64,000 bases of DNA from Clostridia bacterium. Lineage in GTDB: Bacteria; Bacillota; Clostridia; TANB77; CAG-508. The translations under genes were made by a program, and so were the position numbers. Location: assembly GCA_022793875.1 (NCBI GenBank), contig JAAWDR010000002.1:2399-66398 (forward strand), given 5' to 3'. The number at the start of each line of letters is the position of its first letter. Positions within the stretch are counted from its first letter, which is position 1. Positions 28,328 to 28,619 of the stretch are shown here, one piece after another. Under the pieces are notes generated by a model. It was not told where the DNA came from, searched no databases, and saw nothing but the letters and a program-made list of their open reading frames with translations.

Positions 28328-28356
28328 TTTATATCAAACTCCTCTCACTATAAAAG

Positions 28357-28612
28357 GGGGATTAAGGGGACGGGTCTTAAAATCCCTCTAAAAATAAATT
28401 TATTTTATAGTTATATATATTAAAATAAAGTGATGCGCAGTTTGGGAGGGTATAATTCATACAGATAAGATATATTAATATTTCTTATTATGAAAAATTT
28501 AATAACTTGTTTATATGATTAACCCGACCAGCAAAGAACGACATTTTAATATATATAGCTATAAAATTAATAATATATATAAGGGATTTTAAGACCCGTC
28601 CCCTTAATCCCC
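28357..28612. repeat. ~256-nt foldback (MITE-like) element in the groES-groEL spacer
   Basis: Perfect 31-nt terminal inverted repeats GGGGATTAAGGGGACGGGTCTTAAAATCCCT (28357-28387 / 28582-28612). Inner 25-nt arms 28402-28426 / 28543-28567 have 1 mismatch. The centre is also largely self-complementary. Confidence 0.9.
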
Positions 28613-28619
28613 TGTTTTT

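Follow-up and report, generated by a model that had tools for sequence, protein, structure and literature searches.

The spacer between groES and groEL in an uncultured, low-GC mouse-gut Clostridia species is almost filled by a 256-nt foldback element. With a probability of roughly 0.7, this foldback is a non-coding selfish palindrome resembling REPINs and Correia elements, that is, a tolerated and dispensable insertion in groESL that is transcribed through and has at most a modest effect on mRNA processing. Two inverted REP-like units of 31–38 nt would enclose a conserved, hairpin-forming core of 194 nt, and an element of this build would at some point have entered the groES-groEL spacer. The repeat family is new, and no description of it was found in the literature or in Rfam; its kind, the REPIN/Correia-like palindromes, is well known. 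The family adds such repeats to the uncultured low-GC gut Clostridia, in which none was found described before. Nothing relevant on MITEs in groES-groEL spacers was found in the literature either.

Operon layout and anatomy of the element

The features of the groESL operon and of the element are listed here by position in the window, which is the whole 64-kb stretch of DNA that was analysed.

26693 to 28327, minus strand: groEL, 544 aa (open reading frame; Pfam Cpn60_TCP1 on the identical protein)
28339 to 28346, minus strand: groEL Shine-Dalgarno sequence GAGAGGAG, 11 nt 5′ of the ATG
28357 to 28612, no strand assigned: foldback element, 256 nt, filling nearly all of the groES-groEL gap (repeat search and fold)
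28357 to 28387, plus strand: inverted second copy of the unit, forming the 3′ arm in mRNA sense (0 mismatches)
28376 to 28602, no strand assigned: segment of 227 nt that is absent from the short allele (joint 28375 to 28603 in X27 and X31, sharing 5 letters)
28388 to 28581, no strand assigned: core, 194 nt, an AT-rich imperfect palindrome conserved between copies (alignments, folds and pair counts)
28582 to 28612, minus strand: one copy of the REP-like unit GGGGATTAAGGGGACGGGTCTTAAAATCCCT, forming the 5′ arm in groESL mRNA sense (0 mismatches)
28598, minus strand: reproducible end of cDNA molecules, 3′ in mRNA sense, ...GGGGAUUAAGGGGAC^GGGUC (X25 and X28)
28620 to 28901, minus strand: groES, 93 aa (open reading frame readable from 28928; Pfam Cpn10 on the identical protein)
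28965 to 28939, minus strand: operator TTAGCAGTT-N9-GAGTGCTAA, which we take to be CIRCE-like from the CIRCE consensus, directly after the promoter-like sequence
28995 to 28967, minus strand: groESL promoter-like sequence TTGACA-17-TAAATT (promoter scan and sequence)

An AAGGAGG motif 7 nt 5′ of the ATG at 28901 marks the likely groES start. The spacer between the two genes (28328–28619) measures 292 nt and counts as long, because related groESL contigs from the same metagenomes have spacers of 18 nt and 53 nt. The preliminary description had called this gap long for a groESL operon and its content an inserted element, and an extra element does indeed sit in the spacer. It begins just past the groES stop codon, and the foot of its predicted hairpin lies about 10 nt 5′ of the groEL ribosome-binding site.

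The terminal inverted repeats of 31 nt (28357–28387 and 28582–28612) are perfect, and the inner arms (28402–28426 and 28543–28567) match over 25 nt with one mismatch, both as first described. When the flanking A-run and T-run are included, the imperfect palindrome reaches from 28352 to 28617, and the repeat search merges the arms into a single pair of 75 nt that is 84% complementary (28352–28426 and 28543–28617). The repeated unit as it is met in metagenomes corresponds to 28352–28389 (38 nt). Within the core, the inner arms form a stem that leads to an apical loop near 28486–28492, and the internal loops are asymmetric and contain G+C (sense ...GCTGGTCGGG... and ...CCCTCCCAAACTGCGC...). In the groESL sense, the RNA is predicted to fold at −105.3 kcal/mol, against −51.9 ± 5.1 kcal/mol for shuffled sequences (z = −10.5), which bears out the self-complementary core of the preliminary description. 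The basal helix of this long hairpin comprises 32 perfect pairs, while a single unit is predicted to pair only weakly with itself, so that an arm forms its own small hairpin.

No signal of its own was recognised in the element by the scans applied to it. Start codons of small ORFs in the core are not kept between the long copies on either strand, and the promoter scan gave no consensus match within the element on the sense strand. A TATAAT on the antisense strand of the core is present in two long copies and is not kept in the third. The scan for intrinsic terminators returned none on the sense strand of the element, where the stem is followed only by UUUU. Upstream of groEL, scan and sequence revealed no promoter or operator comparable to those of groES. 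As an element lacking its own promoter or strong terminator, it is therefore expected to be transcribed through within a single CIRCE-controlled groESL mRNA. At gathering thresholds, Rfam matched only a tRNA in the window, and under permissive settings the best matches in the element region had E-values of 2.2–9.2, far below gathering; the Rfam scan proposed in the preliminary description thus gave no match to the element.

Authenticity of the element

Assembly errors are known to produce perfect palindromes, and the element occurs once within the 64-kb window, where GGGGATTAAGGGGACGGGTCTTAAAATCCCT has no further match at up to 3 mismatches (0 expected from 100 shuffles). The probability of an assembly artefact, or of a one-off duplication private to this genome, is nevertheless close to nil. 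ENA, NCBI, JGI and Logan together contribute more than 10 independent assemblies with the identical element, and exact look-up of the GroES and GroEL proteins led to the same 292-nt spacer in assemblies that are 98–99.95% identical to the window. In the mouse-gut DNA runs X1 and X16, contigs span 28358–28611 at the depth of the flanks, as expected of a single-copy sequence, and homologous copies reside at two other loci. The artefact or one-off reading is refuted by these observations, and with it the assembly chimera against which the preliminary description had cautioned.

One metagenome contig is itself chimeric (L026; ERZ14650948 NODE_4260). It carries groES and the groESL element, and switches within the core to the copy at the vanW locus described below. 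The element therefore causes misassemblies, and such repeats can be expected to break metagenome assemblies and to yield chimeric contigs.

Other members of the repeat family

Exact scans for the arm-core pattern gave 5 loci in species-representative genomes and 12 in metagenome contigs, which reduce to three kinds: a long copy, short inverted pairs and a solo unit. In all, long copies are represented by three independent loci (groESL, vanW and pflBA) in two species. The second long copy was reached through the flank of the chimeric contig, followed by a VanW search, and lies between the convergent vanW and NAGPA-domain genes (L030/L031). The vanW copy in L031 and a groESL locus 99.95% identical to the window (L021) both come from assembly GCA_965113515.1. 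The third is found in a human-gut Clostridia MAG (L001/L008), where a homologue of full length, with 86% identity across arms and core, occupies the pflB-pflA spacer between the pyruvate formate-lyase (PFL) gene and the gene of its activase. A search of the genome and its relatives for the terminal repeat and the whole element, as the preliminary description had advised, thus recovered a second long copy in the same MAG, a third in a human-gut relative, and solo units and short pairs besides.

The short pairs are found in Clostridium sp. 28_17-like MAGs, in which two inverted units, each one base shorter than those at groESL, stand about 25 AT-rich bases apart in the spacer between a GtrII-like gene and polA. 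This doublet has a predicted folding energy of −62.5 kcal/mol (z = −12). One solo unit occupies the same GtrII-polA site in a sister species. The window has the same GtrII-polA synteny, with 86–88% protein identity, and its organism is therefore a close relative; its own 113-nt GtrII-polA spacer is without a unit.

The unit is far more abundant than the core in mouse-gut DNA. In runs X9 and X11, depth over the unit (28352–28389, and in particular 28359–28385) is 199–287 against 7–10 in the flanks, and in runs X2 and X10 it is 26–46 against 5. Across the mouse-gut DNA runs, the unit stands 5–30 times above flank depth and appears on 6–24 contigs per run with differing flanks, possibly from several species, while the core stays near single-copy depth. 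The unit is intergenic at every locus checked. At four loci, the element or unit begins 6–10 nt past the stop codon of a gene that is transcribed towards it, and at several its end lies about 10–13 nt before the Shine-Dalgarno sequence of the next gene. Viral contigs scanned with the core of the terminal repeat and with a core motif contained no copy, and BLAST searches against plasmids and phages gave either nothing or AT-rich chance matches.

A search with an nhmmer profile of the unit, run on the window and all fetched loci, returned nothing beyond the copies listed above and one diverged unit. The latter reads CGGGATTTAGGGACGTTCCTTAAAATCCC followed by TAGGGACATGGGGACACTCCTTAAACC (L002 7551–7620; L007 737–776) and lies just upstream of a gene whose product starts with MNEDRLINPGLEDVGEERLENTLRPQTLDEY, presumably ruvB judging by its sequence alone. 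The unit family thus extends beyond what scans for exact patterns could reveal.

Some unit copies in X9 and X11 have a tandem duplication of the sub-motif ATTAAGG(A/G)GAC at 28358–28374. It is seen as a joint that goes back from 28374 to 28358 with ATTAAGGAGAC in between. The unit itself is therefore built from a short internal direct repeat.

Short alleles and instability of the palindrome

Several strains with identical GroES and GroEL proteins have a spacer of only 65 nt (L018, L023, L040, L041, L044 and L045). In L041 and L044, the short spacer equals the long one minus exactly 227 nt between two TTAAG repeats (GGGGATTAAG|ACCCGTCCCCTTAATCCCC); in the forward strand of the window, these direct repeats read CTTAA (28376–28380 and 28603–28607). 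The short spacer of L018, L023 and L045 is the product of the same TTAAG junction with two substitutions, one of which adds a pair that closes the loop. As the 65-nt spacer is an exact deletion product in conspecific strains, the element is both dispensable and unstable. The short allele is found both in a close neighbour of long-allele strains, separated from them by just a few SNPs (L018), and in a divergent lineage (L023). One MAG contains both alleles on separate contigs (L025 and L045) and is a strain mixture. Instability extends to the vanW site, where a closely related strain (L028; VanW about 99% identical) carries a short form with a different junction (TCCC).

The opposite course of events, in which the long form would have arisen by insertion of 227 nt into a solo hairpin, was rejected as unparsimonious. 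The insert would have had to complement the loop of its target exactly, and the short alleles are therefore regarded as deletion derivatives. To judge by the two junction sequences, TTAAG and TCCC, palindrome-stimulated slippage would fit better than site-specific excision. Excision of REPINs that leaves long palindromic singlets has been described (PMC3337134), and by analogy REPIN-type excision remains an alternative mechanism for the short forms. In the favoured scenario, the DNA palindrome would stay paired by compensatory change and yet be unstable, and part of the population would have lost 227 nt by a deletion across a microhomology of 5 nt that lies at the hairpin foot.

The deletion leaves a 29-nt hairpin scar that resembles a solo unit. 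The short alleles thus show directly how solo palindromic units can arise, namely as deletion scars of larger foldbacks. They also provide a natural experiment, in which conspecific mouse-gut strains carry an essential groESL operon with either a 256-nt hairpin or a 29-nt scar, and a comparison of long and short alleles would show the cost or effect of a very long intercistronic hairpin in vivo.

Pairing, covariation and strand preference

The three independent long copies align end to end. Their consensus fold has 102 pairs, with 94.5% of cells paired, and 11 pairs are changed on both sides, compared with 0–3 in a control in which the partners were slid by 1–3 columns. In the vanW copy, both arms have changed together from GGGGACGGG/CCCGTCCCC to GGGGACAGG/CCTGTCCCC and from TTAAAA/TTTTAA to TTCAAA/TTTGAA; the changes of arm pairs in this copy include G:C to A:T and A:T to C:G. 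Five pairs of the core covary. These two-sided changes imply that pairing is maintained, either because selection acts on the hairpin or because one arm corrects the other in an extruded palindrome.

Selection on the RNA of one particular strand was rejected as the explanation, because in the two copies tested the antisense strand has a slightly more stable fold than the sense strand (−113.8 versus −103.4 and −123.1 versus −111.8 kcal/mol). G-U wobble pairs also show no strand bias. The flanks of all long copies continue the palindrome as an A-run and a T-run (AAAAAAGAGAGGG...CCCTCTCTTTTTT in L001). When the long loci at groESL, vanW and pflBA were compared by eye for a target-site duplication, they shared no direct repeat of fixed length.

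Transcription of the element

Evidence from RNA consists of assembled metatranscriptome contigs, in which depth is a crude measure of expression and coverage of the core is patchy. Three 454 runs labelled 'metatranscriptomic WXS' (X26, X29 and X30) were left out of it as DNA-like, with contigs longer than 85 kb. One contig (X49, 28506–28856) extends from groES across the 5′ arm into the core, two link the core via the 3′ arm with the groEL side (X25, 28121–28432; X47, 28331–28485), and a further one covers the core (X46, 28366–28543). RNA contigs thus join the element to both genes, in agreement with the transcribed hairpin between the chaperonin cistrons that was originally proposed. The depths of groEL and groES contigs in five metatranscriptomes are 84:79, 32:31, 15:18, 9.9:9.6 and 21.9:21.3. 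By this crude measure, no strong polarity from groES to groEL is visible, and groEL RNA is not measurably depleted.

In both X25 and X28, the groES contig halts exactly at 28598, where it is fused to the Illumina read-2 adapter, which implies that nearly all molecules crossing that point end there. The position lies 15 nt into the 32-bp basal helix, and also in the apical loop of the small hairpin that the arm forms on its own. It may be an endonucleolytic processing site of RNase III or of a single-strand nuclease. It could also be a library effect, caused by priming at the GGGGAC of an AT-rich transcript, of which the region around this motif is the only G+C-rich site, or by a block of reverse transcription at the hairpin. 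The presence of RNA through the 3′ arm in X25 (to 28432) argues against complete double-strand cleavage by RNase III. In X46 and X47, the core was assembled and the flanking genes were not, which hints weakly at a stable hairpin fragment. An apparent joint between opposite strands in X48 was dismissed as a de Bruijn artefact of the perfect 31-nt repeat.

The course of events proposed here is that the transcribed element would fold into the long hairpin with its 32-pair basal helix, and that this hairpin would probably be cut or trimmed in part of the transcripts, leaving the discrete end 15 nt into the 5′ arm. Candidate nucleases would be RNase III acting on the long helix or a single-strand endonuclease acting on the loop of the arm's small hairpin. 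Of the effects suggested in the preliminary description, processing is hinted at by the reproducible end at 28598, whereas the nearly equal depths of groES and groEL speak against a strong effect on their stoichiometry.

Comparison with known palindromic repeats

REPINs are doublets of REP sequences that form hairpins, are flanked by A/T-runs and leave singlets as remnants (PMC3337134). The REPIN/REP/BIME repeats of Proteobacteria share with the groESL element their short, imperfectly palindromic units in inverted pairs that make one long hairpin, a spacer that keeps the hairpin structure, flanking A-runs and T-runs, and an extragenic location after stop codons and inside operons. Singlets in both look like remnants of doublets, with loss of the middle giving a long palindromic singlet (PMC3337134). 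Inverted doublets are found at the polA site, the long element is such a doublet with a long spacer, and the short alleles resemble singlets. Unlike REPINs, the present family lives in a low-GC Firmicute, has a unit of unrelated sequence and is known from few long copies. Its 194-nt spacer is conserved across loci and species, in contrast to the short, non-conserved spacers of REPINs, and the deletion junctions use different microhomologies (TTAAG and TCCC). In REP/RAYT systems, a GTAG is conserved at the 5′-end of the unit; in the unit alignment, GTAG is absent in or beside every copy. No RAYT (Y1/HUH transposase) gene flanked by units was found among the checked subset of ORFs of the 64-kb window. 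The resemblance to REP sequences that was noted at the outset therefore stands for the organisation into units and doublets, and fails for the sequence.

Correia elements (CREE) have inverted repeats and a conserved core, and are substrates of RNase III when transcribed; they measure 104–157 bp, occur by the hundreds per genome, have a target duplication and an IHF site, and can create promoters at their ends (PMC2649163). Like CREE/NEMIS in Neisseria, the groESL element has inverted terminal repeats around a conserved core, is intergenic next to genes and varies in presence between strains. The likeness may extend in part to RNA: the hairpin of transcribed CREE arms is a substrate that RNase III binds or cuts, and the present element is co-transcribed with an RNA end in one arm. 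On the other hand, no target duplication, end promoters or IHF site was found in it, it is unrelated to CREE in sequence, and CREE occur only in Neisseria. ERIC/IRU, RUP and BOX elements are non-coding imperfect palindromes of 100–300 nt that are co-transcribed and can alter the mRNA stability of flanking cistrons. They are alike in kind and differ in sequence and host, and the present element has no Rfam or BLAST match to them. In Agrobacterium tumefaciens, the bicistronic groESL mRNA is reportedly split between the cistrons at a cleavage site in the native spacer, with differential stability of the products. In the present operon, by contrast, the candidate site belongs to an inserted repeat that is dispensable, and the RNA depths are about 1:1.

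Since neither a target duplication nor GTAG is present and no mobilising enzyme was found, the element works like these families and is not a member of any named one. Its distribution is what points to mobility; neither a transposase or RAYT gene nor an IS with matching ends was found.

Alternative explanations

A classical MITE, which would be a deletion derivative of an IS with these terminal repeats mobilised in trans by a DDE transposase, was suggested in the preliminary description and is now unlikely. The perfect 31-nt terminal inverted repeats, the small size (256 nt), the lack of coding capacity, the copies at unrelated loci in two species and the presence/absence polymorphism, with long and short alleles at groESL and both forms at vanW, would all suit such an element. 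However, the flanks of the three long copies have no direct repeat in common and extend the palindrome by an A-run and a T-run instead, and the absence allele is a microhomology deletion scar rather than an empty site. Nor was an IS-sized element bounded by the core of the terminal repeat found with exact 18–20-mers in species-level genomes and metagenome contigs; exact-pattern scans of species-representative genomes and of metagenome and viral contigs for an autonomous IS with the same ends gave the short forms and the long element only. The supposed terminal repeat also occurs solo and in short inverted pairs, as a free-standing unit, and the organisation is therefore REP/REPIN-like and not that of a strict MITE.

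Less likely still are two readings that assign the hairpin a dedicated task in groESL expression. It could be a cis-regulatory RNA (a processing site, stabiliser or thermosensor) kept for tuning the ratio of GroES to GroEL, and its place in the operon makes differential processing plausible. The discrete RNA end in the 5′ arm in two metatranscriptomes, the assembly of the core without flanking mRNA in X46 and X47, the distance of about 10 nt from hairpin foot to groEL Shine-Dalgarno sequence and the compensatory changes point the same way. Such a role is most improbable because the element is dispensable, being missing in strains with identical GroES and GroEL, because the same element resides between convergent genes and in the pfl operon, because G-U pairs are not biased to one strand and antisense folds slightly better in both copies tested, and because groES and groEL contig depths are about 1:1. 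The missing Rfam match, the copy between convergent genes and the lack of strand preference also weigh against the uncharacterised structured RNA of the preliminary description, at least as a dedicated function. It is similarly improbable that the element is, or derives from, a bidirectional intrinsic terminator or attenuator module by which less transcription would pass from groES into groEL. In its favour, all copies have an A-run and a T-run beside the hairpin, the element starts 6–10 nt past a stop codon at four loci, the vanW copy separates convergent genes, and an attenuator role has been proposed for REPIN doublets with A/T flanks (PMC3337134). Against this, the stem is followed only by UUUU on the groESL sense strand, the scan finds no terminator, RNA contigs pass both arms, and groEL depth equals groES depth in five metatranscriptomes, where no downstream groEL promoter could compensate.

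A selfish, tolerated palindrome remains the preferred reading, though the asymmetric internal loops of the core, conserved in all three long copies, are unexplained by a purely selfish palindrome. Alternatively, the unit-core-unit arrangement may be a portable RNA module that would bring an endonuclease site into any transcript, release a stable hairpin RNA of about 230 nt and uncouple the decay of upstream and downstream cistrons, a proposal that is about as doubtful as the MITE. In that case, the core loops GCUGGUCGGG and CCCUCCCAAACUGCGC would be a surface for recognition by protein or RNA. The end at 28598 in two samples, the core-only assembly in two metatranscriptomes and the spacing of about 10 nt to the Shine-Dalgarno sequence at several loci are compatible with such a module, and none of them proves it.

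Other observations in the window

The surroundings of groESL vary between strains, on the groEL side in L018/L040, L041 and L044. A tRNA-Gly(TCC) gene (26540–26613, minus strand) comes after groEL. Just 3′ of groEL, a gene for a large serine recombinase is present in L018 and L040, and one for a class A beta-lactamase-like protein (PF13354) in L041, which suggests that the region downstream of groEL is an integration hotspot. On the other side, two hypothetical genes upstream of groES (29353–30268, plus strand; 125 and 178/199 aa; no Pfam match) are missing from the divergent strain L023, and contigs of the short-allele strain depart from the window past 29092 (loose end at 29092 in X27 and X31). 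The upstream region of groES is thus an indel polymorphism that adjoins the operon. RNA contigs reach upstream to 29021–29055, despite the groESL promoter and the CIRCE-like operator at 28995–28939.

Two further genes of the window are in pieces. The polA gene (52787–55529, minus strand) is split into two overlapping ORFs, of which one encodes the 5′-3′ exonuclease (301 aa; 54624–55529) and the other the 3′-5′ exonuclease-like domain and the polymerase (618 aa; 52787–54643). Its orthologue in L003 is a single ORF of 928 aa, and the split could be a frameshift, a sequencing error or natural. The glutamine amidotransferase/Peptidase_C26 gene beside the DUF1846 gene (30347–31118, minus strand) is likewise in two pieces, the second of which is called as 89 or 69 aa in other strains, and is possibly a decaying gene.
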